DNA from: Terriglobia bacterium
GTDB taxonomy: Bacteria; Acidobacteriota; Terriglobia; 20CM-2-55-15
NCBI GenBank assembly: GCA_965198225.1
Contig: CBDAOY010000007.1
Coordinates: forward strand, 990,045 to 1,054,044
Direction: 5' to 3'
DNA length: 64,000 bases
Shown here: positions 47,540 to 64,000 of the stretch, piece by piece
Layout of the letters: each line of letters starts with the position of its first letter
How positions within the stretch are numbered: the stretch's first letter is position 1
Position numbers and translations under genes: made by a program
Notes under the pieces: model-generated
What the model was told of the DNA's origin: nothing
The model's input: only the letters and a program-made list of their open reading frames with translations
Databases searched by the model: none

Positions 47540-47555
47540 ATGTAGAAATCTACAT
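47540..47555. promoter_or_regulatory. PadR-type operator ATGT-N8-ACAT (ATGTAGAAATCTACAT)
   Basis: A perfect 16-bp palindrome 4 bp upstream of the padR ATG and 12 bp downstream of a TTGACA (47522..47527). ATGT-N8-ACAT is the operator pattern reported for PadR-family repressors. Confidence 0.5.
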
Positions 47556-47558
47556 TCG

Positions 47559-47864: not shown

Positions 47865-48475
47865 GGTGGGCAGGCGGCGAGCGGTCTCTCCGCGTCTGCC
47901 TGTTGTGGATTCGCGCTCTGTCGTTCCTCGTCCCGCCCCCGGGCCGGGACGAATGGATGCGGGAGTGGCGTGGCGAGCTTCTGCATCACTGGAGTGAGTT
48001 CGAGACAGGAGTTCAAAAGTCCCGTGCTGCAAGATTCGATTTGTTCCTACATTCGATGGGCGCCTTGCCTGATGCACTGTGTCTGCTGCGTCAGGAGTGG
48101 AGACTGGACATGCTGATGCAGGATCTGACCTATGCGGTACGGACGCTCGGCGCTCGACCGGGCTTCACCTTCGTAGTGATTTTCATTCTGGCGCTGGGTA
48201 TCGGGGCCAACACCGTCGTGTTCAGCGTCGTCGATGCCGTCCTGTTTCGACCCCTACCGTTTCCCGAGCCGGAGAGGCTGGTTGCGATCTGGGACGAAAA
48301 CACCCAAAAGTCGATGCTTCGTCAGGGTCCGGCGCCCGGCAATCTGCTGGACTGGCGTGACCAGTCACGGGTGTTCGATGGTATCGGAGCCTGGTACGCG
48401 GGCGAGCCCAGGACTGTGCGCGACGAGTCCAGTGCGGAGAAAGTGTCCGCCACTATAGGATTTTATTATGTCTAA
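47861..48475 (+). pseudogene. ADOP-type (duplicated MacB/FtsX-like) permease gene, truncated after ~197 codons by island insertion
   Basis: MLMQDLTYAVRTLGARPGFTFVVIFILALGIGANTVVFSVVDAVLFRPLPFPEPERLVAIW..NLLDWRDQSRVFDGIG matches the ADOP N-terminus. Similarity ends at ..AEKVSA (about 48451), where AT-rich foreign sequence supplies a stop. Confidence 0.75.
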
Positions 48476-48535
48476 TAATATCCATAAGTCTTATTTATAT
48501 CAACAGTATATCGTCCTAGACAATCCAGCGCCGTC

Positions 48536-48544
48536 TGGTATAAT
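48536..48544 (+). promoter_or_regulatory. Extended -10 element TGGTATAAT upstream of the integrase
   Basis: A TGnTATAAT match about 70 nt upstream of the integrase ATG, within the AT-rich junction. Confidence 0.35.
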
Positions 48545-48613
48545 CCAAGCCTGTTGGGGGATATATTGGGGGAGTGCTGGAGTGCCTCTGCCCCATCGGT
48601 CGAGGGCTCTGCA

Positions 48614-49792
48614 ATGGCCATTCACAAACTCTCCCAACGCAAGGTAGACACCGCCGGTCCCGGCAAATACGAAGACGGCGGCGGGCTCCGCTTGGTGGTG
48701 TCCAATTCAGGCGCCAGGAGATGGGTCCTGCGTTACACCGTCCACGGCAAACGCCGGGAAATGGGTCTGGGCCGTTATCCCGATGTCGGGTTGGCCGATG
48801 CCCGCACGCAAGCGCTACGGCACCGGAGGCAGTTGGCGACGGGCGTAGATCCCATCGCAGCCCGCCGGGCGGCCCCGGAGACGCTACCCACCTTCACCAT
48901 CTGCGCCGCCCGGTATATCCGGGCCCATCGACGGAGTTGGCACAATGCCAAGCACGCGCGGCAATGGGTCCGGAGCCTGAAGACCTATGCCCGGCCCGTC
49001 ATCGGGGCCAAACGGGTCGACGCCATTGAGACTGAAGACATTGTAAAGATACTCTCTTCGATCTGGAACACCAAGACCGAAACGGCCAAGCGCGTGCAGG
49101 GGCGCATCGAAAATGTCCTGGACTTCGCCGCCGCGCACCAATACTGCGGTCCCCTGAACCCGGCCCGCTGGCGGGGCCATCTGGACAAGTTGCTCCCGAA
49201 GCCCTCCCGGGTGAAGCAAGTCACCCACCACCCGGCCATGCCGTATCCCGAGGTGGCGGACTTCCTGCAGGAGCTGTCCGGACACCGGAGTGTATCGGCG
49301 CAGGCGCTGCGGTTTTTGATCCTGACCGCCACGCGCACCAGTGAAGTCTTAGAGGCGCAGTGGCCGGAAATCGATCGGACCGCCGGTATATGGATCCTTC
49401 CCGCCTCCCGGATGAAAGCCCGACGGGAACATCGAGTTCCCTTATCGGATGCGACCCTGGCGGTTCTGGAAGACCTACCCCGCATGGCAGGCCACCCGTA
49501 TGTCTTCGCCGGATCTCGCCACGGACGCCCTCTGTCGAACATGGCCCTACTGAAATTGATGCGAGACATGGGATATTGCGTTGAGGGTTCCCGGGCTCAC
49601 TACGTGCCGCATGGATTTCGCTCCAGTTTTCGGGATTGGTCCGGCGAGGTGTCGAGCTTCCCGCGAGAAGTTGCGGAAATGGCCTTGGCCCACGTGGTGG
49701 AGAACAAGGTGGAAGCGGCCTACCGGCGGGGGGATCTGTTCGCCAAACGGCGCAGCATGATGCAGGCCTGGGCCGACTACCTCAAGAAGTAG
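48614..49792 (+). CDS. Tyrosine recombinase / P4-type integrase (DUF4102 arm-binding N-terminus)
   Basis: MAIHKLSQRKVDTAGPGKYEDGGGLRLVVSNSGARRWVLRY..GRYPDVGLADAR. Catalytic region TATRTSEV, HGFRSSFRDW, AYRRGD. Confidence 0.9.
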   Translation: MAIHKLSQRKVDTAGPGKYEDGGGLRLVVSNSGARRWVLRYTVHGKRREMGLGRYPDVGLADARTQALRHRRQLATGVDPIAARRAAPETLPTFTICAARYIRAHRRSWHNAKHARQWVRSLKTYARPVIGAKRVDAIETEDIVKILSSIWNTKTETAKRVQGRIENVLDFAAAHQYCGPLNPARWRGHLDKLLPKPSRVKQVTHHPAMPYPEVADFLQELSGHRSVSAQALRFLILTATRTSEVLEAQWPEIDRTAGIWILPASRMKARREHRVPLSDATLAVLEDLPRMAGHPYVFAGSRHGRPLSNMALLKLMRDMGYCVEGSRAHYVPHGFRSSFRDWSGEVSSFPREVAEMALAHVVENKVEAAYRRGDLFAKRRSMMQAWADYLKK

Positions 49793-50066
49793 AAGGGCGG
49801 GTGCGCAAGGTCGACGGGCGGCCAACAATTCATGCATTCCGATGATTCCTTGAAGGAGCCCACTGCTTCCGAGGTGTGAAAGAATTCAGGCTGGTGCGGA
49901 TTCGACGCGGAAGTGGTCGGCGGAGTGAAAGGAGATGCGACAGAATCTGAGGATCTACGATTCCCGACCGAACCCCAGTGGGGCTAGTGTAGGCCGTCAC
50001 CAAAGGGCACCGCGGACTCGGTCGATGTGACTTTGATCAGGGAAAATCATGGACGGAACGGGTCCC

Positions 50067-50708
50067 TCAATGGATCGTCGGCTTCTCCACGCCGATGGTG
50101 GACAGTGCGTGTTGGCGGGCTCGCGTGCAGGCAACCACAACGGCATGAAGCTCTTTCTCCGCGATCCGTGAGAGTTCCCGCACGTTCTTGAGGCTCCGCG
50201 CCAGATCCATCTCCGAGCGCGACGATGTTCTCTCCAGACACTCCACCATGCTGTGCATCATGGCGTTGATCTCCCCGAGATTGTCCATGGCTTCGTGAGC
50301 CCGTTCGGGGAGATCCAGCACCTCCTCGGCACCGAACAGGCCGTCGATGAAACCTTCCAGCTCTTCCATGCGGGTGCGGCAGAGGCGACTCAGATCATCG
50401 AGCTCCGCCTTGGCGGCCATCGGTGTCAAACGGAACGGCCGGGTTCCCGATTGATGCTTTGCCAATTCGTTCCAGAGGCCCATGAGAGCCTCAAACAGCT
50501 CGTTGGCGGCAGCGACATCGTCAAACTTCGGCAGTTCTCCTCCCCAGAAAGCTGCTACGGTCGGGAGGGGCGACGCATCAAGATTGGGACTGGCGATGTT
50601 GCCGAGGAAGCGTGTGCGCACGACATGGAATGGAGTCGGACAGGCATAACCGTCCAATAGCCCGCGGACTCGTTCGTCGCCCTGATATCTGTGGGAACGT
50701 TTCTTCAT
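50067..50708 (-). CDS. UPF0149/YecA-like family protein
   Basis: LDGYACPTPF..ASPLPTVAAFWGGELPKFDDVAAANELFEALMGLWNEL resembles the UPF0149 N-terminal pattern (recollection). Confidence 0.45.
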   Translation of the reverse strand: MKKRSHRYQGDERVRGLLDGYACPTPFHVVRTRFLGNIASPNLDASPLPTVAAFWGGELPKFDDVAAANELFEALMGLWNELAKHQSGTRPFRLTPMAAKAELDDLSRLCRTRMEELEGFIDGLFGAEEVLDLPERAHEAMDNLGEINAMMHSMVECLERTSSRSEMDLARSLKNVRELSRIAEKELHAVVVACTRARQHALSTIGVEKPTIH

Positions 50709-50795
50709 GCCCGATTAACTTCCGGCCGGCGTTGTGCCATTTCACCTTGTCCCTGCGGAAGCAGATTAGTCCGAAGAAGTTCGAGAATTTCCCGT

Positions 50796-51380
50796 TTACG
50801 TCCCACAGTTCTGGTAGTCCGAGGCCATACACGTGCGCGCCCACTCAATGGCGCGGCTGATCTGGGCACGGGTCATTTCACGTTCAAGGTTGCCCCGCGA
50901 CTCCTCGGGCCCAACGCCGGCGACGCTGACCCTCCCATTGGCGCTGGCGATATTGAACCACATGTGCGCGAGCACGTCGTCCTCGATGCCGCCCAAGCCG
51001 TTGTAGTACATCAACCCGAGGTTGAACTGCGCGCTCGCGTGCCCCTGCTCGGCCGCCATGCGGTACCATCGCGCCGCTTCCGCATCGTCTTCGATGACAC
51101 CCTCGCCGTGGGCATACATGGTTCCGAGATTGAATTGCGCACGCGCGTCCCCCTGCTCGGCCGCTATGCGGAACCACCGCATTGCTTCACGGTCATCCTC
51201 CATGGCGGCCTCGTCATCGTCGTAGGTGCTCCCGAGGCTGTCCGGCGTATCCGCGTTCCCCTGCTCGTCTTCGGCCTGAAAGCGTCCTGGTTCGTCCTGC
51301 GCCGGAACACATGCCGCGGCCAGCAGCCAGGAGCCGCAGAGCAGTGTCATCGCGATCCATCGGTTACGGTGTTTCTTCAC
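50796..51380 (-). CDS. Sel1-repeat (TPR-like) protein, secreted, possibly a lipoprotein
   Basis: Signal sequence ..LLAAAC. Three Sel1 repeats (AMRWFRIAAEQGDARAQFNLGTMYAHGEGV.., AARWYRMAAEQGHASAQFNLGLMYYNGLG..). Confidence 0.85.
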   Translation of the reverse strand: MKKHRNRWIAMTLLCGSWLLAAACVPAQDEPGRFQAEDEQGNADTPDSLGSTYDDDEAAMEDDREAMRWFRIAAEQGDARAQFNLGTMYAHGEGVIEDDAEAARWYRMAAEQGHASAQFNLGLMYYNGLGGIEDDVLAHMWFNIASANGRVSVAGVGPEESRGNLEREMTRAQISRAIEWARTCMASDYQNCGT

Positions 51381-51620
51381 GGCAGCCTCCCATGTCCTGG
51401 TGATCTTATGCCTTGAGACTGGATCGTCGATTGTAGGCGATCCAGGACGCGACCCTACAAGTACTTGGCGACTCTAGTGTAATGGGATCCGCAGGTTACG
51501 TTGCGTGCCGAACACGGATCACCGCTGGAGTGTGGACACAGCGGAAGGTTCACCGTGCCGACGGACGGGTAAGCCAGCCACCTTGAGCAGGATCATCTTG
51601 GGACGCCATCGGCGGCACAC

Positions 51621-51971
51621 CTAACGTCGGCGGCCGCAGGACACGAATATCTCCACGTCGGCCCTCAGCGCGCGCTCCGTGTTGTGGCTGAAGGCACCCC
51701 GGGCCGCTTTGAAGTAGGCGGCCAGTTGGTCCCCTGCCTCCGCAGCGTATTCAACACGGAACGAGAGCGTTCTCGAGCGGGTTGGTCTGCCCGATCGCCT
51801 TGTGCAGCGTGGCGATGCTGGAGACGTAGCGGCGCACCGTCGCCGGGGCCTTGACGCGCGCCATGTCGTCGATGAAGGCGACCAGGGTGGGGGCGTTGGC
51901 GGGCAACGCCGGCACGACCTGCTGCCGGCAGCCAGGATCTCCATCTCGCATGTCATCTCTGAAATCAGCAT
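51621..51971 (-). pseudogene. Fragments of a tyrosine-recombinase N-terminal (SAM-like) domain, frameshifted and in permuted order
   Basis: The frame A segment ..CRQQVVPALPANAPTLVAFIDDMARVKAPATVRRYVSSIATLHKAIGQTNPLENA is followed by the frame B segment ..AAYFKAARGAFSHNTERALRADVEIFVSC. In intact integrases of this type the B-like segment precedes the A-like segment. Confidence 0.45.
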
Positions 51972-52009
51972 CGGGCGGCCTCCGGTTCAGTCGAAAAAGG
52001 CCGCGAATT

Positions 52010-52041
52010 TTACTCGCGATAATTCCAGTTATCGCGAGTAA
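52010..52041. repeat. Perfect 13-bp-arm palindrome TTACTCGCGATAA-ttccag-TTATCGCGAGTAA
   Basis: Read directly from the sequence. It lies about 40 bp upstream of the integrase fragments. Confidence 0.6.
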
Positions 52042-52611
52042 AGCCCCGAGATAACGCTTTCCTCGCCGTTGATCACACGGCGCGGCGGATTTTTTTCGAT
52101 CCGGCGCCTGCTGCCCATCAGCTCAGGGGGGGCGGGACGCAACGAGGTCTGTCTACCGAACGGGGGAGTTGTGGTGCCTTCTACGGCCCGAATGAGCGCG
52201 ACCAGATATCGCCAGCGAACCGGAGAAAGGGACATCGACTTGGCAGAACACCGTGAAATCGCGGCGTCACGCGTCACAGGGATAGACACGAAAGCGGTGG
52301 CGAAGGACTGAGGTGGCCGTATCGATACGGTCGTGGCGGCGCGCTCACCCGCAGCCGTGGCTGCGCCGATGATTTGTCCATGGGGCGATCCGCCGCGTGA
52401 CCGCAAGCCGCTGGCGATGAGTGCCTGCCCGGTTCACGGAAATCGGGCTATGGGCTCTGCCGTGCAGCGCCGCCCGCCTGTTCCGTGCCGAGCCCGTTGG
52501 CAGGACATGAGCAGTTTCGCCGCCGATACCGTCGATCAACGTGCGACCGTCATCACCGGTCCCCGGGTGTCGGTCCGCGGACGTCAATTCACAAGGGCGA
52601 CGCGCTACCGC

Positions 52612-53751
52612 ATGCGCGTGCTCTCTTTTTCGCTGCAAGGCCTTAAAACCGGGTTATTTCTGCTATTCGCATCACTGCTGGCCGTGTCGGCGCCGATTCA
52701 GGCCAGCGCGCAGGCGAACAGCCCTCCGGCGGTGACGGGGCCAACCAGCGTCGACTACGCCGAGAACAGCGAGGAGACGGTGGCCACGTATATCGCTACG
52801 GACCCGGAGGCCGAAGCAATCGCGTGGAGCGTGTCCGGGACGGACCATGCGCTGTTTTCCATCACTGCGGGTGTCCTGGAGTTCCTGAGCCCGCCGAACT
52901 ACGAGAGGCCTATCGACGAGGGCGAAGACAACGCGTATGAGGTGGGCGTCACGGCCACGGATTCCTCCGGGGCGGCCGCCACCGTTGCGGTCACCGTGAC
53001 GGTAACAGACGTCAACGACCCGAACATCGTCCTCATCATGGCGGACGATGTCGGTTATGAGGCCTTTGGGGCATACGGTAGCGCACAGTACAGAACGCCG
53101 CGAATTGATGAGCTTGCAGCCGCGGGAGTTCGCTTCACGAACGCTTACTCAAACCCGGTATGCACCCCGAGCAGAGTTGCCTTGATGACGGGTAAGAGCA
53201 GTGTCAGGAACTATGTGGATTTCGGAGTTCTACTCCCCGGAGAATACACGATTACTGATCTCTTTAGTGGGGCCGGATACGCAACGGCCATCGCCGGAAA
53301 GTGGCAGCTTCACGGTAGTGTCGTAGGTAGTGACGTAGTGGCTGGTGTCCCTGCCGGAACCGGATTCGACACGTATTCCTTGTGGAATACAGCCAACACG
53401 GGTCGTAGTCGCTACTGGAATCCTTCCATCGAACGCGACGGTGAAATCATCGATCTGGGCAGCGAGGATTACGGGCCCGACATATTCACGAATTTCCTGC
53501 TGGAATTCATAGAGTCCAACAGAGATAAACCGTTTTTCGCCTACTACCCGATGGTGCTTCCTCATGATCCGTTCGGCTCGCCGCCGCAAGCCCAATGCGT
53601 CGATACCGCTGACGGACAGTGCAATTTCGAGGACATGGTCGCGTATCTCGATTACAACGTCGGCCGCATACGCGACAAGCTGGCGGACCTGGAGCTACTC
53701 GACAACACAATCCTCATATTCACCTCCGACAACGGAACTCACGCACGCTGA
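52612..53751 (+). CDS. Signal peptide + cadherin-like domain + sulfatase N-terminal part (continues in the +1 frame; see 53738..58837)
   Basis: MRVLSFSLQGLKTGLFLLFASLLAVSAPIQASA. VTVTDVNDPNIVLIMADDVGY. Formylglycine motif CTPSR. The frame ends ..IFTSDNGTHAR*, in the middle of the sulfatase domain. Confidence 0.8.
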   Translation: MRVLSFSLQGLKTGLFLLFASLLAVSAPIQASAQANSPPAVTGPTSVDYAENSEETVATYIATDPEAEAIAWSVSGTDHALFSITAGVLEFLSPPNYERPIDEGEDNAYEVGVTATDSSGAAATVAVTVTVTDVNDPNIVLIMADDVGYEAFGAYGSAQYRTPRIDELAAAGVRFTNAYSNPVCTPSRVALMTGKSSVRNYVDFGVLLPGEYTITDLFSGAGYATAIAGKWQLHGSVVGSDVVAGVPAGTGFDTYSLWNTANTGRSRYWNPSIERDGEIIDLGSEDYGPDIFTNFLLEFIESNRDKPFFAYYPMVLPHDPFGSPPQAQCVDTADGQCNFEDMVAYLDYNVGRIRDKLADLELLDNTILIFTSDNGTHAR

Positions 53752-56700
53752 TCTGATTTCAGAACTCGGGGGAGAAATGATCCATGGGGATAAGAACATG
53801 CCCAACAATGGCGGCACGCGGGTACCGCTGATAGTCAGCGTTCCAGGAGGTGAGGGGGGACGGGTGTTCGACGACCTGATCGACTTCACCGACTTTCTCC
53901 CGACTCTGGCTGATGCGGCAGGTCTTACGATTCCTGACGTCAATATGCTGGACGGCGTGAGTTTTTGGGACAGGCTTCAAGGCCGAACCGGCCAACCGCG
54001 GGAATGGATATATACCTATTACTTCCCACGTCCGTTCGCCGATAGGTTCGACAATCCGCAACGTCATCCAGAGGCGTCGTATGTCCGAGACAAGCGGTAC
54101 CAGCTCTACGGAACAGGAGAGTTCTTCGACATTTCCGTAGACCCTCACCAAGTGCATCCGTTGCCGAGTGACGATGAAGAGTCCAGCGCCGCCCGTACCA
54201 AGCTGCAAGCGGTTCTCGACTCGATGCCGGGGAGAGGTGAGGAGATTTACCCATATTTGATAGGAACTGTCCCGGACTCTGAGCCGCGCCCGCGATGGCG
54301 GCCCGTCCTGTCGAAAGCAACTGTGAACGGCGGCCAATTGACGCTCACTTACGCCGGAATTCTGGACTCAAGAGAAGCGCCTCCCGCAGATTCCTTCATT
54401 GTGAACGTTGATGGTTCCGAGCGTGCGGTCTCCACAGTTTCGATAAGCAAAACAGCGGTTACGCTTACACTCGCTTCGGCGGTTACAGTTGGCCAGACGG
54501 TGACGTTGAATTACACGCCGGGAACGAATGCGATTCAGCACGCGAACAGGCCATTCGGGCACAAAGCGGCACCCCTGGTTCGCCAAGGGGTGACGAACAA
54601 CACTGTGGACACGACGGCGCCGGCGGTGTTGTCGATCACGAGCGACGCGACGCACCCGACGAAGAACGCTTTCACGGTGACGATAACCTTTTCGGAGGAG
54701 GTGAGGGGACTCACGGCGGGGGAGATCGCGGTCACCAATGGCACGGGCTCGAACTTTGCGGGCACAGGCGCGAGCTACATGCTCGACATCGAACCCAGCG
54801 ACGATATCGAAGCCGACGTGACGGTCCGGGTTCCGGCCGATGCGGCGATGGACGCCGCGAACCTCGGCAACATCGAGGGGATCGAGACCTTCGCGGTGGA
54901 CACCCAGGCGCCGGCGGTGTTGTCGATCACGAGCGACGCGACACACCCGACGAAGGATGCTTTCAGGGTGACGATCACCTTTTCGGAGGCGGTGACGGAG
55001 CTCACGTCGCAGGATATCGCGGTCATGAACGGAGTGGGCTCGAACTTCGCGGGCACGGACGCGCGCTACACGCTCGACATCGAGCCCAGCGCCAATACCG
55101 AAGACGATGTGACGGTCCGGGTTCGGGCCAACGCGGCGGTGGACGGCGTGAACATCGGCAACGTCGAGGGGATCGAAACCTTTGCGGTGGACACCCAGGT
55201 GCCGAGGGTGTTGTCGATCACAAGCGACGCGGCGCACCCGACGAAGGATACTTTCACGGTAACGATCACCTTTTCGGAAGAGGTGACGGGGCTGACGGCG
55301 AGTGAGATCGTGGTCAGCAATGGCCGTGGCTCGAACTTCGCGGGCACGGGCGCACGCTACACGCTCGACATCGCTCCGAACGCCAACCTTGAAGCCGATG
55401 TGACGGTCCGGGTTCGAGCCAACGCGGCGGTGGACGGCGCGAACAACAGCCACGTCGACGAGGGCGAGACCTTCGCTGTGGACACGCGGGCACCGGTGTT
55501 GATGAGCGCTGCGGTGGATGGCGACACGCTGACGCTGAGCTATGGGGAGGCGCTGGGCAACCCGACACCGGAGCCGGGCGATTTCACGATGAATGTGGAG
55601 AGCGCTGGGCGGAGCGTTTCCAGGGTGGCGGTGAGCGGAAGAGCGGTGACTTTGACGCTTGCCTCGGCCGTGGCGCATGGCGAGACGGTGAGAGTGAGCT
55701 ACAGCCCGGGGACGAACCCGATCCAGGACGCGGTGGGCAACCAGGCTCTGGGACTGAGCAACGCGTCGGCCACCAACACTACGGATGCACCCAACACGGA
55801 TCCGATGATCACGAGTCCGGGGCCGTTCAATGTCACTGAGAATCAAGCGCGGGTGACCCGGCTGATGGCGGCCGACGCCGACCCGGGGGACGAGGTCACC
55901 GGCTATACGCTTGTCGGCGGAGCCGATCGGGCCCAGTTCACGGTCGGTGAGGATACCGGAGATCTGGGCTTCCGGGCGGTTCCGAACTTTGAAGCGCCCA
56001 CGGATGCCTTCAGTAACGATCCGCCAAGTGGGGCAGGAGACAACGAGTACATCGTGGTGGTCCAGGTCAGCAGCGGGGCAGGAACGCGGGTGCGGACGGC
56101 GGAACAGACGATTCGCGTGCGGGTGAGTGACGTGGAGGAGCTTCCAGCGGCGCCGGAGGAGCCGACTTTTCCGAGGGCGACGCCGGACAGCCTGACGGTG
56201 GCGTGGACGGAGCCGGACAACACCGGGCCGCCCATCACCGGCTATGACGTGCAATACCGGGAAGGCGTCAGCGGCGGCTTCACGGATGCGCCGCACTCCG
56301 GGACGGCCCAAACCACAACGCTCATGGGGTTGAGCGAGGGCACGGCCTACCAGGTGCAGGTGCGGGCGAGGAACGCGGAAGGAACAGGTGACTGGTCGGA
56401 GCCGGGCGAAGGACGGACCGTGGCCCCGCTGAGGGTTCGGATGACGCCGGAGCTGGAGCCGCCGGTGGAGGGCCCGTTCTCGGTGAGGTTCAGCTTTTCG
56501 GAGACGGTGACGGGTTTCAGCGGAAGCGACATCGAGACGGGTCAGGACCTTGCCTGCATGGACGATCAGAACAACCCGGTGTTCTGCAACCCCGGCTTTG
56601 CGGCATTCGAGACCACGGATAGCCGGGTCTTCACCACCCGCGTGACCCCGAGGACCGGCGGGGTGGCCAATAACTACAAGCTCACGCTCACGGTGCGTGC

Positions 56701-58837
56701 CGGCGGAGTGAGATCGTCTGTCGGCAATAAGCCTAACGAGGAGGCGACGCTTGAGGTGCCGGTGGCGCCGCCGGGGGTGACGGTGCCGATCGGGCCGCTG
56801 GGGCTGACGGCGAGCGGGGGAAACGGCCAGGTGGCGCTCCGGTGGAATGCCCCGGGGGACACCGGGGGCGCCGCGATGGTCCGCTACGAATACCGGGTGG
56901 CGGATGGCGTCGGCGGGGAGTTCGGCGCCTGGATGCGGGTGGATGCGGCGGCGAGGTCCGCGCCGGTCCCCGATCTGACGAACGGCCGGGAATACGTCTT
57001 CGAGCTGAGGGGGGTGAACGCCCTGGGCTACGGCGGGGTGGAGACCGTGCGAGCCACCCCGGTGCGCACCACCACCGGGGACGGAGGAGGCAGAGGAGGC
57101 GGCGGGGGTGGGGGCGCCCTCCGCGGGACAGTGCCGGGCGCGCCGACGAACCTGACGGCTGAGGGCGGGGACGGCCAGGTCGTACTGAGTTGGGACGCCC
57201 CGGAAAGCGACGGCGGGGCGGCGATCACCGATTACGAGTATTGGAACGGCGGGAGTCGGACCTGGACCTCCATCGGTTCCACGAACACCACCCATACGGT
57301 CACCGGCCTCGACAACGGAACGGAATACACCTTCCAGGTGCGGGCGGTCAACCGAAGGGGCCGGAGCCGGGCTTCCAACCGGGCTACGGCGACGCCGGAC
57401 GTGTTTATCCTGGACTTTGCGCATTTCGCCAATGGCGCGTCCATTACCTCCGATCTGGTGCTGGTGAACCCGGGAAGCATCCCGATCCGGCCCGTCGTTT
57501 ATTTCTACGACACCGGGGGCAATCCAATTAACGCCGAATCGGTGGTGGACGTCACCGGTGATCTGACGGTCGCCGAGGACGGTGCCTTGACGGTCCTGGC
57601 GGATATGGAGCCACTCAGAGAACTCACGATTGCGACCCACGGTCGGGGAGCGCTCGTGAGTGGATCGGTGAAGGTTGTCTCTTACGGTCCTGTCGGCGGG
57701 TTCCTGCGCTATAACGTCCCGGATGTCGGCGTGGCCGGTGTGGGAGCGAGCCCGCCCACACGGGATGTCCTTTTCCCGGCCCGCCGCGAGGCGGGAGGCA
57801 TCAATACGGCGGCGGCGATCCAGAACCTGGGAGAGGCACCGCTGGAGGTGAGCTGCCGATTGATGCGCGCGGGCGCGGTGCTGGAAGAGGCGGAGATCGC
57901 TCTTGCGCCCAACGGGCAGTCGAGTGTCTTTATCGACGAACAATTCCCCGCCACCGATACGTCCGACTTCGCGGGGTCGATGCACTGCGACGCCCCAGCG
58001 ACGTTCACCGGTGTGGCGGTCGAGATGGATGCTGTCCACCGCATCTTTACGGCACTGCCGGTGGTTTCCGCGGATCGGCTCAGCGGCGGCAGTGCGACGG
58101 TCCTGGACTTTGCGCATTTCGCCAATGGAGGTTCCATCACCTCCGATCTGGTGTTCGTGAATCTGAAGACCCGTCCGAGCGGGCCCGCGCCCACTCCCTT
58201 TCAGATGGCCATCCCTCCGAGCCGCCCTGCCATCCATTTCTACGACACGGAGGGCAATCCGATGGCGACCGAATCGGTGGTGGACATCACCGGCGATCTG
58301 GAAGTCACCGAAGACGGCGCCCTGACGGTCCGGACGGAGATGGAGCCCTTGGGCGTGCTCACGATTTCGACTCACAGCCGGGGCGATCTGGTGACCGGAT
58401 CGGTGAAGGTGGTCTCGGAGGGTCCCATCGGCGGGATGCTCCGCTTTGACCTCCCCGGCATCGGCGAGGCCGTGGTGGGGGCCAGCGAGCCCCTCAGCGA
58501 CTTCCTCTTCCCGGTGCGCCGCCAGGAGGGAGGCATCAACACGGGGGTCGCGATCCACAACCTGGAATCGAGTCCGGAGTTGGTGCGCTGCGAACTGCTG
58601 CGCGAGGGCGTGCTGCTCGATACCGTGAGCATCCCTCTTGAGGCCAACGGGCAGACCTCCGGGTTCATCGACGGGCGATTCCCCAGCGTCGATACGTCCG
58701 ACTTCGTGGGGTTGGTACGCTGCAATGCAGTCGGTGAGGGGCTCTTCAGTGCCGTCGCCCTGGAACTGGATGCCGCCAACCGCATCTTTACCACACTGCC
58801 AGTGATCCCGCTGCAAGAGACGATGTCTCAGGAATAG
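53738..58837 (+). CDS. Sulfatase C-terminal part + SwmB-like, Ig-like x3, cadherin-like, FN3 x3 and two ~220-aa C-terminal beta domains (giant surface protein)
   Basis: The frame-2 sequence THADLISELGGEMIHGDKNMPNNGGTRVPLIVSVPGG..DFLPTLADAAG continues the sulfatase fold, followed by the repeat domains. The track ORF start at 53564 is upstream filler. Confidence 0.8.
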   Translation, partial: LTHADLISELGGEMIHGDKNMPNNGGTRVPLIVSVPGGEGGRVFDDLIDFTDFLPTLADAAGLTIPDVNMLDGVSFWDRLQGRTGQPREWIYTYYFPRPFADRFDNPQRHPEASYVRDKRYQLYGTGEFFDISVDPHQVHPLPSDDEESSAARTKLQAVLDSMPGRGEEIYPYLIGTVPDSEPRPRWRPVLSKATVNGGQLTLTYAGILDSREAPPADSFIVNVDGSERAVSTVSISKTAVTLTLASAVTVGQTVTLNYTPGTNAIQHANRPFGHKAAPLVRQGVTNNTVDTTAPAVLSITSDATHPTKNAFTVTITFSEEVRGLTAGEIAVTNGTGSNFAGTGASYMLDIEPSDDIEADVTVRVPADAAMDAANLGNIEGIETFAVDTQAPAVLSITSDATHPTKDAFRVTITFSEAVTELTSQDIAVMNGVGSNFAGTDARYTLDIEPSANTEDDVTVRVRANAAVDGVNIGNVEGIETFAVDTQVPRVLSITSDAAHPTKDTFTVTITFSEEVTGLTASEIVVSNGRGSNFAGTGARYTLDIAPNANLEADVTVRVRANAAVDGANNSHVDEGETFAVDTRAPVLMSAAVDGDTLTLSYGEALGNPTPEPGDFTMNVESAGRSVSRVAVSGRAVTLTLASAVAHGETVRVSYSPGTNPIQDAVGNQALGLSNASATNTTDAPNTDPMITSPGPFNVTENQARVTRLMAADADPGDEVTGYTLVGGADRAQFTVGEDTGDLGFRAVPNFEAPTDAFSNDPPSGAGDNEYIVVVQVSSGAGTRVRTAEQTIRVRVSDVEELPAAPEEPTFPRATPDSLTVAWTEPDNTGPPITGYDVQYREGVSGGFTDAPHSGTAQTTTLMGLSEGTAYQVQVRARNAEGTGDWSEPGEGRTVAPLRVRMTPELEPPVEGPFSVRFSFSETVTGFSGSDIETGQDLACMDDQNNPVFCNPGFAAFETTDSRVFTTRVTPRTGGVANNYKLTLTVRAGGVRSSVGNKPNEEATLEVPVAPPGVTVPIGPLGLTASGGNGQVALRWNAPGDTGGAAMVRYEYRVADGVGGEFGAWMRVDAAARSAPVPDLTNGREYVFELRGVNALGYGGVETVRATPVRTTTGDGGGRGGGGGGGALRGTVPGAPTNLTAEGGDGQVVLSWDAPESDGGAAITDYEYWNGGSRTWTSIGSTNTTHTVTGLDNGTEYTFQVRAVNRRGRSRASNRATATPDVFILDFAHFANGASITSDLVLVNPGSIPIRPVVYFYDTGGNPINAESVVDVTGDLTVAEDGALTVLADMEPLRELTIATHGRGALVSGSVKVVSYGPVGGFLRYNVPDVGVAGVGASPPTRDVLFPARREAGGINTAAAIQNLGEAPLEVSCRLMRAGAVLEEAEIALAPNGQSSVFIDEQFPATDTSDFAGSMHCDAPATFTGVAVEMDAVHRIFTALPVVSADRLSGGSATVLDFAHFANGGSITSDLVFVNLKTRPSGPAPTPFQMAIPPSRPAIHFYDTEGNPMATESVVDITGDLEVTEDGALTVRTEMEPLGVLTISTHSRGDLVTGSVKVVSEGPIGGMLRFDLPGIGEAVVGASEPLSDFLFPVRRQEGGINTGVAIHNLESSPELVRCELLREGVLLDTVSIPLEANGQTSGFIDGRFPSVDTSDFVGLVRCNAVGEGLFSAVALELDAANRIFTTLPVIPLQETMSQE
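54605..55477 (+). repeat. Three tandem 291-bp (97-aa) Ig-like domain repeats within the giant CDS
   Basis: Units start at GTGGACAC (54605, 54896, 55187) and the array ends at 55477. The protein repeat is VDTxAPxVLSITSDAxHPTKxxFxVTITFSEEV.. Confidence 0.85.
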
Positions 58838-58873
58838 ACGGACGCGCCTGACAGGCTAGGCGACGGCGTCGCC

Positions 58874-59803
58874 ATGAGCTTCGAACCGGGCGTCGACGCC
58901 CAACGCGGGAGAGCCCGAGTCAGGGGGGCACGGACCACGGCATGCCTGGACGGTTCACGGCGCGCCGGCGGTAGACATCCGATCCGTGGACACCGTGGGC
59001 CGGGGGCGCCCCCGGATGCATACCGGAGGCCGGCGGGGGTCCATCATGCCTGGGATGACTGTGATGTCGATGTTGCCGTGCTCGGTCGCGTGCCTCGTCG
59101 CAGCCGGCATCCGCGGTGTTGCGGAATGGCTCCACGCGTTGAGGCTCGACGACAGCTCGCGCTGGCTGGGCCCATCCTCCGAAAACCTCTGCTATCCGTA
59201 TCGCGAAAGGCGCTGGCCTCCGGCGAGCCGGAAGATCCCCCCGGCTGGGAACGGATCTATGAAGGCTCGTTCCTGGAAGCAGCGCTGGTCACACAGCTTT
59301 CCGGCGACTTTCCCGGCCCGGTGCTGGCCGTGGTTTCGGTGCCCTTTTACTCGGCAGACCGGCAGCGGATTTTAGTCCCGCGAGGGGCGCGAGTCGTGGG
59401 CACGGCTCAGGCCGTGGCGAATCAGGACCAATCGCGCCTTGCCGTCAGTTTCCACCGTTTGATCTATCCGGACGGGCGTTGGGTGTCGCTGGAATTCAAC
59501 GGCCTCAATCAGGTCGGCGAGGGAGCCTTGAAAGATCAGGTCAACCGCCATTACCTATCCACGTTCGCCGCAGTCGGCGCGGTCGGCATCCTGAGCGGGC
59601 TGACCTTGCGCGGCTCCAATCCCTATGGCGGCGGGCAGCAGAGCCTTCAGGCTGGGGCCGGACAAGGGCTCGGCCAGGCCGCGACGCGCATCCTGGATCG
59701 TTTCCTGAATCGTTTGCCCACCCTCACCATTCGGGCCGGGCATCGGCTTCGCGTTTGGTTCACTTCCGACGTGCTGGTTCCCCGGCCCCAACAAGGAGAT
59801 TGA
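58874..59803 (+). CDS. VirB10/TrbI-like protein, C-terminal barrel domain only (N-terminus not credible, probably truncated)
   Basis: GSFLEAALVTQLSGDFPGPVLAVVSVPFYSADRQRILVPRGARVVG..RLAVSFHRLIYPDGRWVSL..LPTLTIRAGHRLRVWFTSDV. No TM or Pro-rich N-terminal region was found. A possible start is the ATG at 59126. Confidence 0.6.
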   Translation: MSFEPGVDAQRGRARVRGARTTACLDGSRRAGGRHPIRGHRGPGAPPDAYRRPAGVHHAWDDCDVDVAVLGRVPRRSRHPRCCGMAPRVEARRQLALAGPILRKPLLSVSRKALASGEPEDPPGWERIYEGSFLEAALVTQLSGDFPGPVLAVVSVPFYSADRQRILVPRGARVVGTAQAVANQDQSRLAVSFHRLIYPDGRWVSLEFNGLNQVGEGALKDQVNRHYLSTFAAVGAVGILSGLTLRGSNPYGGGQQSLQAGAGQGLGQAATRILDRFLNRLPTLTIRAGHRLRVWFTSDVLVPRPQQGD

Positions 59804-59804
59804 A

Positions 59805-60722
59805 ATGAAAATGTACCGAAAAGCCTTCACCGTTGTTGTCATGGTTCCGATCCTCATCATGCTCACCACCACGCCCGCGCATGCCCTCTTCGGCTCGATC
59901 CTTGCGGGCATCCAACGCGCCCAGATGATCGCCAATCAGGGGATCCAGATCTACAAGGACACAATGGCGAAGATCACCCTGGACGGCCAATTGACCCAGA
60001 TGACGGATCAGTTCAACCACCTGCAAGAACAGGCGCTCGGAAGTGTCGGGGCGCTCACCGATCCGTTTACGCAGTTGGCTTCGGTGCCGACGCAGTTCAT
60101 CGGCGTGGGTCTCGCGTGGAAGAACGATTTTACCGGCGTTGCCGCGGAGCTTGTCTCGTCGGTGGAACAGATGGGCGAAACCGGCACGAGCTTTACCGAG
60201 TCGTGGCGTGATCGGCTCACCGCCGCCGACACGGTGACTGAGAGCGACATCATTGGTCTGTACAACTCTCAGCGGCCCGAAATGGCCCAGAGAGCGGCAC
60301 GGGGCTACCTTGCGGCGCGAGAGGAAGGCGAGAAACGCCTGGTCCTCGATCACGCCACGAGCGATGCGGCGGCGAATCTCATGATTGCGGCGCGTGAGGC
60401 TGTGGCCTCCTACGAAGGACTGCGAAACAACACCAATACTTCCAACACCGCGCTCGCTCAATCGCAGGTGGCCGGGACCCTGACCCAGGGGAACCTCACC
60501 GCGGCCATGGCGCAGTTGATGGCGTTCGATACAGCAAAGGCGGCAGCGGAAGATTACGAACGCGAGATCGCCCGGCGCGACGCGCTGGCGGAATGGGTCG
60601 AGGCCCAGCGCCGCGCGCGCGTCACCTTCGACGCGCAACAGGCCGGGCTCGATGCCCGGCGCGATGCGATGCGGGAAGGGTTGCTCTTCCAGATTCATCC
60701 GTTCTATCGCGGCGGGAACTAA
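59805..60722 (+). CDS. VirB5/TrbJ-like type IV secretion protein
   Basis: A signal peptide followed by long helical/coiled sequence, in the position between the VirB10-like and VirB6-like genes. Assignment is by layout and context. Confidence 0.45.
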   Translation: MKMYRKAFTVVVMVPILIMLTTTPAHALFGSILAGIQRAQMIANQGIQIYKDTMAKITLDGQLTQMTDQFNHLQEQALGSVGALTDPFTQLASVPTQFIGVGLAWKNDFTGVAAELVSSVEQMGETGTSFTESWRDRLTAADTVTESDIIGLYNSQRPEMAQRAARGYLAAREEGEKRLVLDHATSDAAANLMIAAREAVASYEGLRNNTNTSNTALAQSQVAGTLTQGNLTAAMAQLMAFDTAKAAAEDYEREIARRDALAEWVEAQRRARVTFDAQQAGLDARRDAMREGLLFQIHPFYRGGN

Positions 60723-60734
60723 CCCGGTACGCCG

Positions 60735-61736
60735 ATGCAAATCCAACTCGACCCGGCGATCCCGGCCCAGGTCCCCCCGGAGCAGCTTCGGGATTTCAAG
60801 TCGTTTCTCGATACCGTTCTCGAGGGAATCATCGGCCCGGCGGCCAACCCTCTGCTGGAGACCGGAAACCTGCTGTGGACAGGGTTAGCCGCAATCGTGG
60901 TGGTGTTGACCGGCGCGAAGATCGCGTACAGCGGGAACATTCAGCCGTGGGACATCGTCCGGCTCGTCATCGGTCTGTGGGTGCCGTGGGTCATGTTGCA
61001 GTTCTACTCGACGCCCATCCCGGGGCTGGTCTTCACGTTCCCGGGGGTCATCACGGCGGGCGGGAATTGGTTGCACAATTTCTTGCTTGCGGACACGGCC
61101 TGGTCCATGCATAGCGAACTCGGAAACCTCGTCACCAACCTCGCGGAGGATCTTCAGGTGCAAGCGAATCAGGGGAGTATTCTCGGCGTGCTCACCGGCG
61201 GCGCTCACGCCGTGCTGACGCTCGTTGCCGGAGCCGTCATCATGCTGTTCGTCGTGACCTGTCTCGTCGTTTTGTTCGCGGTTACCTACGCTCAGGTGAT
61301 CTGGGCCCAGATCGCCCTGGCGATCCTCACGCTCCTGGGTCCGATCTTCATTCCCTGGCTGGTGTTTGAGCCGATGAGCTTCATGTTCTGGGGATGGTTC
61401 CGGGCGATGCTGACGTATTCGCTCTACGCCGTGATCGCCGGGGCCGTCATGCGCGTGTTTTCCGGCGTGGGCCTCGCCTACGTCACGACCCTGGGCACCG
61501 CCCAACTCAACTGGCAGTCCATTGGCGATCTCGGTTTGTGGCTCCTGGCGGTCCTGCCCCTGTTCGTGGCCGGGATCCTGTCATCGCTCAAGTGCGGGGA
61601 GCTCGCCTCGATGCTCGTCACCGGTGCCGGTGCATCGGGAAGCGGGCTCATGGGCATGGCGGGGATGGCGGGAACGGTTGCCACCGGCGCCAGCGTGCGC
61701 GCGGCCGCGAAAGCGGGGGCGGGAGGTCTGAAATGA
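60735..61736 (+). CDS. VirB6/TrbL-family type IV secretion membrane protein
   Basis: A polytopic membrane protein of 333 aa with a Gly/Ala-rich C-terminus (GAGASGSGLMGMAGMAGTVATGA), as in TrbL. Confidence 0.7.
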   Translation: MQIQLDPAIPAQVPPEQLRDFKSFLDTVLEGIIGPAANPLLETGNLLWTGLAAIVVVLTGAKIAYSGNIQPWDIVRLVIGLWVPWVMLQFYSTPIPGLVFTFPGVITAGGNWLHNFLLADTAWSMHSELGNLVTNLAEDLQVQANQGSILGVLTGGAHAVLTLVAGAVIMLFVVTCLVVLFAVTYAQVIWAQIALAILTLLGPIFIPWLVFEPMSFMFWGWFRAMLTYSLYAVIAGAVMRVFSGVGLAYVTTLGTAQLNWQSIGDLGLWLLAVLPLFVAGILSSLKCGELASMLVTGAGASGSGLMGMAGMAGTVATGASVRAAAKAGAGGLK

Positions 61737-62404
61737 GCAAGAAGGAAACCCAAGACGCCGGGGTCGAATACGCCGAAATCTGGGGCGAGGCCATCCACGC
61801 GAACCACCACCTGCGGGTGCTCTCTGTCGGGCTGGGGGCGTTGTGCCTGTTGCTCGTCATCGTCGTCATCCGCATCGTGTCGGTCGCTCCCCCGCGCCCC
61901 ATCGTCGTGCGGGTGGATGAAGTCGGCCGCGCCGAGGCCGTCGCCTATGAAGCGATGGAGGCCCAGGCGGACCCCCTCGACCCCACCACCAAATACTTTC
62001 TCAATCGCTTTATCTATGACTTCTACTCCCGGCGGCGGGCCACGGTCGAAGAGAACTGGTCCCGGAGTCTGCGCTTCCTAACGACGGAACTTGCCGGTGC
62101 CTCGTTCCGGGCCGAGAGCCAGAACATCGCCCTTCTCGCGGCGGGCGCGGCGCGGGATGAACTGCAAGTGGATCGCGTCGTTTTGCGGATTCAAGCCAAC
62201 CCCCGGGAGCCCCACAGCGCGACGGCCGATTTCGATCTGGTGCGGCTGGTGGCGCAGAACGAAGTGGGCCGGGAACGCTGGACCCTCTCGCTTCAATTTC
62301 TGTTCCTCGATGAGATCCCGCCGGACCTGATCGTCCACAACCCGATGGGGATCGTGATCACCTATCTGCAAGGAGATCGGGCGATAGTCAGCGGCGAACC
62401 ATGA
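61733..62404 (+). CDS. VirB8/TrbF-like type IV secretion protein
   Basis: The ATG at 61733 overlaps the upstream TGA, with a GGGAGG Shine-Dalgarno. MSKKETQ.., one TM segment (LSVGLGALCLLLVIVVIRIV), then an NTF2-like region YFLNRFIYDFYSRR.. The track ORF start at 61394 is upstream out-of-gene sequence. Confidence 0.65.
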   Translation: MSKKETQDAGVEYAEIWGEAIHANHHLRVLSVGLGALCLLLVIVVIRIVSVAPPRPIVVRVDEVGRAEAVAYEAMEAQADPLDPTTKYFLNRFIYDFYSRRRATVEENWSRSLRFLTTELAGASFRAESQNIALLAAGAARDELQVDRVVLRIQANPREPHSATADFDLVRLVAQNEVGRERWTLSLQFLFLDEIPPDLIVHNPMGIVITYLQGDRAIVSGEP

Positions 62405-63345
62405 TGATCGAGCATTTGCGGGGGAGGGAGCAAAAACTGGAACCGCTCGGTTGGACAGGGCGCGATGCGGAATGGATCGCGCTGGTGTGTTTGCATAGTG
62501 GCGTTTTCACCCGCGCACAATTCTGTTTCTACTTTGATACCCGCCGCGACCGCGCCCATCGGTTTGTACAGGCATTGGTGAAGCGGAGGTCGGCGGTCGA
62601 AACCGATGCCCTCACCTTCAATGGAGGAGGGAAGACGTGCCGGATATCGAGCAAACCGATCTACCGGGCGCTGGGGGTCGAGAACATCCGCCACCGCCGA
62701 AAAGCCCAACCGCCGGTGGTGATGCGGCGGCTCCTATCGCTGGATTTCGTTCTGGAACATCCGGGCATGAACTGGCTTCCCGCCGAGATGGAAAAGGTCG
62801 AGTTTTTTGACGGGCTCGGCCTCTCGCGGCGGTTGATTCCCCGCCGGATTTATTACGGGGCCGTGGGGGCCCAGAAACGCTACTTTGCGCTCAAACTTCC
62901 CCTTGCCGTGGACGCTCGAACCGTCACCTTCGCCTACGTCGATCCGGGGCACAGTACCGCTTCGGAATTGCACTCCTGGGGAGCCGCGCATGGGCCGCTT
63001 TGGGATGCGCTGCGGAAGACGGGGCGGCAGGTCCGGGTGATCGCCATTGCCGCCGAAAACAAGACGGTCGAGCGGGCGGAGCGGGTGTTGCGCGCATGGG
63101 CGGCGGCGGTCCCAGGGGAGCCCAGCGAGGAGCTGACGGTGAAGCGGGAAATCAAGGCGATTGACGAAGCGATGACCCACAAAGACCGGGAATTTCTGGC
63201 CCGGTACGGGGGATTCGGTGGAGCCATGAAACGGTCCGCGGCGCTCCAAAGTCTGCCCGAAGCGAAGGTGACGGAAGGGGTCTCGATTGACGACTACGGG
63301 ACGTGGTTTGCGGAGCGTTTTGCCGGTCCCGAAGGAATACTGTAA
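62401..63345 (+). CDS. Island protein, possibly of the replication-relaxation family (winged-helix N-terminus)
   Basis: LGWTGRDAEWIALVCLHSGVFTRAQFCFYF..AHRFVQALVKRR resembles that family's N-terminus. This is a weak recollection. Confidence 0.3.
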   Translation: MMIEHLRGREQKLEPLGWTGRDAEWIALVCLHSGVFTRAQFCFYFDTRRDRAHRFVQALVKRRSAVETDALTFNGGGKTCRISSKPIYRALGVENIRHRRKAQPPVVMRRLLSLDFVLEHPGMNWLPAEMEKVEFFDGLGLSRRLIPRRIYYGAVGAQKRYFALKLPLAVDARTVTFAYVDPGHSTASELHSWGAAHGPLWDALRKTGRQVRVIAIAAENKTVERAERVLRAWAAAVPGEPSEELTVKREIKAIDEAMTHKDREFLARYGGFGGAMKRSAALQSLPEAKVTEGVSIDDYGTWFAERFAGPEGIL

Positions 63346-63395
63346 TGGGGTTCAAAAGCAATGGGAAATGTGGCAGGATTCGAGGGATTTTTTCT

Positions 63396-63656
63396 TGCAA
63401 CACCTTCCGATCCAGGATGCAACACCCTCAGAGAGGGGGGTGTTGCAGGATTCGGACAAAAGGTGTTGCAATGCCACATCCTCCTATCTCCTTAATTCTT
63501 TTTTGGTTATCCCATACCAATCGGCCTCCACCGTGCCGATCCAGCGAAATCGGGGAGGACGATAGCGACCCCCCTAAAAAGCGCGGGGTCATGTGGCCCG
63601 GATAGAGGCGAGGTGTTGCACGCCTCTATCCGGCCCCATGAGGGTCGCTATCGTCC
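63396..63656. promoter_or_regulatory. oriT-like non-coding region: five TGCAACACC iterons plus nested perfect inverted repeats
   Basis: Iterons lie at 63396..63404(+), 63418..63427(+), 63438..63447(-), 63462..63470(-) and 63612..63620(-). Outer inverted repeat GGACGATAGCGACCC (63557..63571) / GGGTCGCTATCGTCC (63642..63656). Inner inverted repeat CCGGATAGAGGCG (63598..63610) / CGCCTCTATCCGG (63621..63633), with an iteron in its loop. Confidence 0.5.
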
Positions 63657-64000
63657 TTAATTGATCCCTGCGGGAAGGCTCGGAAAACGCCCCCAACGGG
63701 GGCCTTGACGGAAGGGAGACAGACCTATGAAATGGCGTCGATTCATCCCTCATATCCTTCTGTTTTTCGGCGGTCTCGGCTACGCCGTGTGGAGCTTTGT
63801 CCGGCGTCCCTTCCCCATGCTTGGCCGGGCGCATGAGAAGCGCCTGGAGCCAGGCGTTCTTGAGCATGACGCCCACGGCGCGGGCCAGCGCCGGATTGAT
63901 ACCGGCGGGCATGTTCAACGCCAGCACCTTGCCCCCCTCGATCAGTTCATAGAGTGGGGGCAGATGGCGCGGCCCCTCGATTCGTTCCTCTTCGACCGGC
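63589..64000 (-). CDS. Partial ORF (5' end beyond the window); possibly a fragment of a conjugative coupling/ATPase protein
   Basis: Own translation: ..RIEGPRHLPPLYELIEGGKVLALNMPAGINPALARAVGVMLKNAWLQALLMR.. looks protein-like. The 3' third runs through the inverted-repeat region and is doubtful. A competing plus-strand start (ATG 63727 with GGGAGA, MKWRRFIPHILLFFGGLGYAVW) overlaps it. Confidence 0.3.
   Translation of the reverse strand, partial: PVEEERIEGPRHLPPLYELIEGGKVLALNMPAGINPALARAVGVMLKNAWLQALLMRPAKHGEGTPDKAPHGVAETAEKQKDMRDESTPFHRSVSLPSRPPLGAFSEPSRRDQLRTIATLMGPDRGVQHLASIRAT

Follow-up and report, generated by a model that had tools for sequence, protein, structure and literature searches.

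The closest described counterparts of the locus presented here are the transfer origins of two plasmids from Enterococcus faecalis, namely pAD1 and pAM373. The relaxases of the MOB_C class are PD-(D/E)XK enzymes, and among them TraX has an N-terminal winged helix and binds five direct repeats located 70-120 base pairs (bp) from the nick (PMC12857230). TraX also recombines two origins (PMC5714925). MOB-suite assigns plasmid pAM373 to MOB_C. The TraX of pAM373 carries the annotation of a replication-relaxation protein and has a match to the Pfam model Replic_Relax at 5.2e-6. The interval between traX and the coupling protein gene of pAM373 contains 18-nucleotide (nt) perfect arms around 25-nt perfect arms, as well as an adjoining direct-repeat array with a 12-bp period and five overlapping 30-nt copies. 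Francia and Clewell are said to have reported in 2002 that the inverted repeat is common to pAD1 and pAM373 and that the short repeats differ and set plasmid specificity. We examined an interval of related layout in a Terriglobia bacterium (contig CBDAOY010000007.1, assembly GCA_965198225.1), within a stretch of 64,000 nt that is referred to as the window. On the plus strand, a gene for a protein of 314 amino acids (aa), here termed gene X (62401..63345), was separated by a spacer of 381 nt from the start of a coupling protein gene. We consider it reasonably probable, on the basis of sequence comparison, that this spacer serves a family of conjugative plasmids and integrated elements of Acidobacteria as origin of transfer (oriT), with its specificity set by gene X.

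Repeats of the spacer and their conservation

A 9-letter repeat, TGCAACACC, here termed the word, was found in five exact copies in the window, every one of which was inside 63396-63620. By contrast, shuffled sequence contained a mean of 0.31 copies and a maximum of 2, and a chance origin of the copies was rejected. Two copies were on the plus strand (word 1, 63396..63404; word 2, 63418..63426) and three were on the minus strand (word 3, 63439..63447, and word 4, 63462..63470, both of which read GGTGTTGCA on the plus strand, and word 5, 63612..63620, on the 3' side of the P3 loop described below). Words 1 to 4, with two copies per orientation and centre-to-centre distances of 22, 21 and 23 bp, were taken as a putative binding locus (63395..63471) based on the same word positions in relatives. 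Within this locus, single-strand pairing places words 2 and 3 in a 10-bp hairpin that is nested in a 12-bp stem of words 1 and 4.

The binding locus is followed by a segment with the partly conserved blocks CTATCTC..ATTCT, TGGTT, AATCG and GTGCCGA (63472..63555) and then by nested inverted repeats. The outer stem, P1, is a perfect inverted repeat with arms of 16 nt (AGGACGATAGCGACCC at 63556..63571 and GGGTCGCTATCGTCCT at 63642..63657) that encloses a short poly-C/A-rich/poly-G hairpin, P2 (63572..63588), with a C tract of variable length among relatives, and a long inner hairpin, P3 (63590..63641), with a variable stem. The arms of this inner repeat (63595-63610 and 63621-63636) were perfect over 13 nt and matched at 94% over 16 nt, and its 10-nt loop (63611-63620), AGGTGTTGCA, was fully complementary to word 1 plus one base. 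A 17-mer, ATCCCTGCGGGAAGGCT, begins 7 nt past P1 (63664..63680, plus strand), occurs only once in the window and may be the region of the nick or, alternatively, a site to which a conserved factor binds. When folded as single-stranded DNA, 63385-63665 had a predicted energy of -77.7 kcal/mol compared to -38.9 +/- 4.1 kcal/mol for shuffled sequences (z = -9.6).

These results agree in most respects with a preceding sequence-only reading of this DNA. The five iterons that it described, two direct and three inverted, were borne out by the exact count and the shuffles, and the nested perfect inverted repeats were present, with outer arms of 16 nt instead of 15. The word that it placed in the loop of the inner repeat was also found there, as word 5 in the 10-nt loop. 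Its hairpin formed by two words proved to be real (words 2 and 3, 10 bp) but with a loop of 10 nt rather than 8. The stretch had furthermore been described as non-coding, and gene calling left the interval from gene X to the coupling protein gene empty in the window and relatives alike. A minus-strand open reading frame (ORF) at 63589-64000 was rejected as coding sequence, as it is a by-product of an inversion detailed below and is not present in relatives.

The module was compared to that of 80 fetched loci from metagenome-assembled genomes of Acidobacteriota (Terriglobia, Bryobacterales), which harbored several copies per genome. Gene order in these relatives was constant, with VirB2, B3, B4, B9, B10, a protein of ~300 aa, B6, B8 and gene X on one side of a spacer of ~360 nt and, in turn, the coupling protein, VirB11 and ParA on the other. 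Past the stop codon of gene X, three to four words of the form TGnnnCACC were positioned at about 28, 51, 74 and 97 nt, with the first two in one direction and the last two in the opposite direction, and were 21-23 bp apart, a spacing of approximately two helical turns. The words were followed in order by a partly conserved spacer, P1, a poly-C/poly-G hairpin of variable length, P3, whose loop ended in G-nnn-CA, and the 17-mer. The 17-mer was invariant across 12 diverse loci, in which the identity of gene X was as low as 52%, and was exact in 79 of 89 related loci, usually once and in the same place, with a second copy in four loci. Among otherwise near-identical loci, the poly-C tract of P2 (63569-63574 in the window; L002, L016 and L068) ranged from 6 to ~24 C, and this variation may be due to slippage or phase variation or, alternatively, to homopolymer error of long reads.

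Single genomes were found to carry up to nine copies of the element with six different specificities. In several genomes, elements were paired tail to tail on the same contigs at a distance of ~11 kb (L024/L015, L030/L031 and L014/L036). One relative was a circular contig of 36,690 bp with 538x coverage (ERZ25072854 ctg50790_538x_c), which also encoded RepA_C, a TraY-like ribbon-helix-helix protein and ArdC. Three 31-nt direct repeats with the core GTCTATCCGAAACAGCG, spaced 33-35 nt, were located beside RepA_C on this circular plasmid (L091 5425-5523) and are the probable origin of its replication. A search of 72,556 plasmid records by tblastn with gene X and by blastn with the spacer revealed no match.

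Pairing of the nested repeats was examined in 52 distinct module sequences. By this approach, 87% of the stem cells were found to be paired compared to 43-48% with slid partners. The two variable pairs of P1 (alignment columns 7:108 and 8:107) were compensated without exception (AU 44, UA 5 and GC 3 at one pair; GC 33 and UA 19 at the other), and both sides had changed at 12 of the 18 pairs of P3. As judged from this alignment, the nested repeats are under selection for pairing at the level of DNA. Mismatches in the stems were G.T in 50 cases and A.C in 49; the finding that G.T was no more common than A.C argues against a structure that is read solely as plus-strand RNA, and an RNA-only structure was rejected as the principal explanation of the module.

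Covariation of the words with the recognition helix of gene X

At its centre, the word had the triplet CAA in the window and GAA, CCG, CCA, CCC, TCA, TGA, TCC, GTA, TTC, TTA or TAA in other elements. When each element was searched with its own 8-mer, 126 copies were detected inside the 330-nt spacers compared to 25 in the 1.15 Mb outside, where ~35 were expected by chance. The loop triplet of P3 was identical to the upstream triplet in 35 of the 48 relatives that could be scored, compared to a permutation mean of 5.3 and maximum of 14.

Gene X of the window had no match to Pfam or NCBIfam, and its family is large (3173 hits among 90%-identity clusters; 1931 clusters at 50% identity). An AlphaFold2 (AF2) model generated from a diverse alignment, with a predicted local distance difference test (pLDDT) score of 89, had an N-terminal winged helix (recognition helix at residues 49-61 and wing at residues 65-82), a conserved alpha/beta domain at residues ~104-235 and a helical tail. 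All significant structural matches of this model were to MarR/ArsR-type winged-helix DNA binders, and faint MarR Pfam hits were detected in distant members of the family. Residues D115, E129, K132, R149, R160, D181 and H197 were near-invariant, and the order of secondary structure elements in the model is compatible with a nuclease-like fold. Sequence searches of the PDB with the gene X family, and with the family of a 299-aa protein considered below, gave no match. Two homologues of 416-417 aa (P0002 and P0004) had one to two extra tandem C-terminal modules of the form LT.K.EIKAID.AM..D..FLA.YGGF.

Within this otherwise highly conserved protein, residues 47-53 were hypervariable and tracked the triplet, and residues 48-53 (RRDRAH in the window), which are at the start of the modelled recognition helix, form a putative specificity patch. 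The patch RRDRAH was associated with the triplet CAA, RRN[RA]A[LH] with GAA (the GAA word being TGGAACACC), [ED]SKRAH with CCG, DRK[RQ]AL with CCA, [HG]RK..E with TCA, HRW.A. with TGA, QR[IM]TAS with TTC or TTA, and WRSGAQ, GRQRAQ and FRNRAQ with GTA. The three columns of gene X with the highest mutual information with the word were R48, H53 and D50, and R48 carried 2.75 of 2.84 bits (30 loci). By contrast, when the first 300 residues of the coupling protein were used as a linkage control, which is encoded closer to the words, the best column carried 1.55 of 2.84 bits. Same-word pairs had 59-83% of the patch in common compared to ~42% for different-word pairs, in every bin of background identity. 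The same patch was also found with the same word in distant backgrounds (RRN.A. with GAA and [HG]RK..E with TCA). Based on the covariation of patch and word, the weak signal of the linkage control and the location of the patch on the recognition helix, we strongly infer that gene X reads the words by way of this helix. The earlier description of the repeats as protein-binding words is in accord with this covariation with the adjacent gene.

Transfer setting, candidate origin and alternatives

As is characteristic of transfer origins, the spacer was found in cis with genes for a type IV channel and a coupling protein (VirB10, VirB6 and VirB8 in the window; the full VirB2-B11 set and a TraG-D_C coupling protein in relatives), and its paired non-coding repeats, with their compensatory changes, adjoin a short sequence that is conserved in most related loci. 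The sequence-only reading had named the absence of a transfer function on the island as a finding that would speak against it, and both VirB-type genes and a coupling protein gene were present. Its suggestion of a transfer or replication origin was supported in its first half by a conserved cis module that is situated in a conjugation cluster and laid out like that of pAM373 and pAD1, whereas a replication origin is unlikely. The relaxase that it anticipated just beyond the window was not encoded there, as the next gene is the coupling protein gene, which in this copy is broken by an inversion.

In the transfer origin that we propose, gene X would bind to the four phased TGnnnCACC words and to a fifth at the apex of the inner repeat via residues 48-53, as the covariation suggests, and the complex would assemble beside the conserved nested inverted repeat, which may extrude as a hairpin or cruciform. 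A nickase would cut nearby, most plausibly at or beside the 17-mer 7 nt 3' of P1, or within the inner repeat, and the coupling protein encoded downstream would deliver the nicked strand to the VirB-type channel. This nickase may be the conserved C-terminal domain of gene X or, more likely, the 299-aa protein with a PD..E motif that is encoded by the same elements. The listed genes of relatives, including those in the 29 kb read of the 36.7-kb plasmid, had no relaxase domain of a canonical Pfam type, which leaves gene X and the 299-aa protein as non-canonical candidates. Since word and helix vary while hairpins and 17-mer are constant, each of the co-resident elements, with their nine copies and six specificities at most per genome, would address its own origin only.

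The 299-aa protein is conserved in relatives, in which its gene opens the transfer operon ~9 kb upstream, and is absent from the window. An alignment of this family (L090:930-1829 and 31 homologues) revealed a winged helix akin to the one in gene X (hhalign E = 5.6e-5) with a recognition helix that is not variable, as well as the invariant motif YPDAQ[LI]EY...VN[VI]E (YPDAQLEY...VNVEIATEHY in L090). This motif was set by hhalign on D152...E170 of TraX, in a comparison with an overall E of 0.58, and 5 of 31 members had marginal Replic_Relax matches that did not reach the cut-off (E = 0.016). As far as these comparisons indicate, the 299-aa protein is more likely than gene X to be a (MOB_C-like) nickase. 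A division of labour, in which a variable gene X would address variable words and a constant nickase would act on constant hairpins and the 17-mer, is suggested since it fits the pattern of conservation.

The assignment of gene X itself as a MOB_C relaxase is not established by sequence. Gene X shares with MOB_C relaxases an N-terminal winged helix-turn-helix, as predicted by the AF2 model and the MarR/ArsR matches, and a site made up of short repeats, to which it would bind as judged from covariation, at a distance from a large inverted repeat. In a single planned profile-profile comparison, the gene X and TraX families were aligned by hhalign over 167 colinear columns, with a weak match (E = P = 0.013, Prob 3%) in which the paired invariant residues were H98/H102, E129/E129, R160-Y161/R180-Y181, P167/P187 and YVDP/YVTP. 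The label of replication-relaxation gene that had been attached to 62401-63345 is unsupported by Pfam and NCBIfam and was abandoned in favor of a neutral name.

Several observations weigh against a transfer origin as proposed. Gene X failed to match both Replic_Relax (Pfam PF13814) and MobC_subf (NCBIfam NF041423), and these models gave no match to 34 diverse members of its family at E up to 1; its alignment to TraX is weak, as detailed above, and leaves the catalytic strand of TraX (D152, E170, E172 and K176) in a gap. The ~7 kb of the 36.7-kb plasmid outside the 29 kb that were read could hold a relaxase. In 13 of the 48 scorable loci, the loop word was unlike the upstream words; these exceptions were mosaics of one hairpin module with other words, as exemplified by the loop CGCTGTTCCA that is common to L008 and L024. 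The coupling protein gene immediately follows the module, which thus occupies a position that would likewise suit an operator or promoter. An ORF-less group II intron of ~0.78 kb (Rfam RF02005, 180 bits) was found precisely within the 17-mer, between ATCCCTGCG and GGAAGGCT, ~20 nt past the outer hairpin and in sense orientation, in three different elements of one genome (L043 8983-9766, L050 about 11243 and L059 11239-12022), and this suggests that the region is transcribed.

These last points bear on an operator region, in which gene X would be a MarR-like regulator that acts on the words to control the coupling protein and virB11 genes or its own operon, the diversification of words would provide private regulation as in phage immunity, and the hairpins would be parts of a 5' untranslated region or terminator-like. 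We regard this explanation as the main alternative and as plausible, although clearly less likely than a transfer origin. The significant structural matches of gene X were solely to MarR/ArsR-type proteins, with the faint MarR hits of distant members in addition, but its ~230 further conserved residues, including the near-invariant D115 to H197, are more than a plain repressor needs. The words do form inverted pairs immediately upstream of the next gene, yet a scan for sigma-70-like promoters and intrinsic terminators, which may not fit Acidobacteria, found none. Likewise, the intron in sense orientation implies transcription, yet the mismatches in the stems had no bias to the RNA strand. An operator would also leave the nested repeats, the loop word, the family-wide 17-mer and the architecture in common with a proven origin unexplained.

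An origin of replication of the iteron type, at which gene X would act as initiator, was rejected as the principal explanation and is very improbable, because the circular 36.7-kb relative has its own RepA_C gene (E = 7.6e-29) with the three 31-nt direct repeats elsewhere. Phasing of the words by two helical turns, diversification of specificity among co-resident copies in the manner of incompatibility determinants, and the presence of some relatives on small circular contigs would all suit such an origin. By contrast, gene X lies inside a transfer operon, between virB8 and the coupling protein gene, has no Rep domain and has one winged helix compared to the double winged helix of Rep_3-type initiators, and its words are of 9 bp in two orientations rather than direct iterons of 17-22 bp.

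Equally slight, in our estimation, is the chance of a structured RNA, either a small RNA or a 5' leader on the mRNA for the coupling protein, with a loop word that pairs with the upstream words. Complementarity of the loop to word 1 plus one base, strong covariation of the stems and probable transcription of the region would be accounted for, but pairing alone would not put one and the same word in both upstream stems and a distant loop, nor would it make the word track a protein helix. Moreover, G.U-type mismatches were not in excess over the A.C type, and Rfam 15 gave no match in 46000-64000 at E up to 1, save a chance CRISPR-repeat hit elsewhere. Least credible is a site-specific recombination site for multimer resolution or attachment, since, although tyrosine recombinase genes are present in the window (48554-49792) and the circular relative and mosaics join the hairpin module of one lineage to the words of another, the module always occupies the interval from gene X to the coupling protein gene, at a distance of 8-17 kb from genes for recombinases, lies within the element and not at its ends, and has words that co-vary with gene X and not with a recombinase.

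The window copy itself is a rearranged remnant in which gene X and the cis module are intact, as its coupling protein gene is broken, VirB2-B4 and VirB9 are absent, and it is colinear with the closest relative from 59946 onward only. The remnant of the VirB-type cluster (58874..62404, plus strand) encodes a C-terminal portion of TrbI/VirB10 together with a 305-aa protein, TrbL/VirB6 and VirB8, and the start of gene X overlaps the stop of the VirB8 gene. The VirD4/TraG-type coupling protein gene (63727..63823, plus strand) is represented by its first 32 codons (MKWRRF...), after which the breakpoint of the inversion is located (63823/63824); past this point, the sequence continues with a segment from ~1.3 kb farther along the same gene, in reverse complement. 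Window 63823-64000 was 96% identical to L007 12688-12865 in reverse complement, by internal inversion or assembly error.

Elsewhere in the window, an ORF with a sulfatase domain runs into the start of another of 1757 aa (53564-58837), which abuts the truncated TrbI gene, and the GC content of this region (52333-58837) was up to 65-68%. It seems that the 1757-aa ORF has taken the place of the transfer cluster's upstream half. A P4-type tyrosine integrase (48554-49792; domains Arm-DNA-bind_3, Phage_int_M and Phage_integrase) is encoded 9 kb upstream of the transfer-gene remnant, with no tRNA gene nearby; the only tRNA of the window is a tRNA-Ser at 3161-3248. An 817-aa protein with a radical-SAM/SPASM region fused to a class I methyltransferase domain is encoded on the minus strand at 42624-45077.

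Implications and comparison with known systems

Acidobacteria are a dominant phylum in soil whose conjugation is essentially undescribed, and the module provides a testable candidate for a transfer origin together with the specificity protein of a very abundant family (thousands of gene X homologues). Three protein positions matched to three DNA positions would constitute a recognition code that may be used for orthogonal mobilization systems, and the code of patch and word would offer a way to predict which co-resident elements mobilize each other. Two unannotated protein families are thereby flagged as candidate components of a non-canonical relaxosome. A broader proposal, which is possible but which we presently doubt, is that gene X founds an undescribed DNA-processing family for conjugation in Acidobacteriota that reads a 3-nt code in a fixed 9-bp frame and directs nicking to a cruciform that displays the word. 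If true, there would be at least twelve mutually orthogonal pairs of origin and protein, many related elements could reside in one genome without cross-mobilization, and the want of a recognizable relaxase in these VirB-type systems would be accounted for.

In rolling-circle origins (the double-strand origin of pMV158; the iterons and hairpin of geminiviruses), short words beside a conserved hairpin set the specificity of the initiator, and word and protein determinant co-vary among relatives. The module of gene X is similar in its specificity words beside a conserved hairpin and in their covariation with a protein. By contrast, HUH endonucleases cut an invariant loop in rolling-circle systems, whereas the loop of P3 carries a variable word, no HUH protein was found, and the setting is a conjugation cluster. 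Iteron origins of the RepA_C/Rep_3 type are comparable in their phasing by whole helical turns, their winged-helix reader and a specificity that diversifies among co-resident replicons, but differ in that the words of the module are shorter and in both orientations, gene X is within a transfer operon, and the circular relative has a separate RepA_C gene with iterons of its own.

Origins of the IncP (RP4) and Ti type (TraJ, VirD1; MOB_P) have in common with the module an inverted repeat located a few bases from a highly conserved short sequence and a separate DNA-binding protein that recruits the nickase. The 17-mer contains ATCCCTGC, which may be similar to the motif ATCCTG/C at the nick of IncP and Ti. 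In the 29 kb examined here, however, no relaxase domain of the MOB_P class was detected, and the accessory proteins of IncP and Ti-type systems are small ribbon-helix-helix proteins compared to the 314-aa winged-helix protein of gene X. Auxiliary proteins that recruit the nickase have been listed (PMC12857230). IncP and Ti-type origins are also without a distal array of words of swappable specificity, unlike the module described here.

The pAD1/pAM373 type (oriT2/TraX) is similar in several respects, as the origin is located between a gene on the relaxase side and the coupling protein gene, large nested inverted repeats are found beside an array of short repeated words, and TraX has an N-terminal winged helix, like gene X, and repeats that are far from the cut site (PMC12857230). 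By contrast to this type, the acidobacterial words are of 9 bp, are 21-23 bp apart and are arranged as two forward and two reverse copies with no 12-bp direct array; a fifth word is in a hairpin loop, and an invariant 17-mer is located past the outer stem. Gene X also falls below the Replic_Relax and MobC_subf models with the TraX catalytic strand unmatched, relatives encode a second protein, of 299 aa, with both a winged helix and a PD..E motif, and the host is a diderm with a VirB-type channel. Taken together, distal specificity repeats beside a large inverted repeat are of a kind already known from MOB_C plasmids of Firmicutes, whereas the host phylum, the unannotated protein family, the invariant 17-mer and the fixed-frame 3-nt code common to up to five sites, including the hairpin loop, are new.

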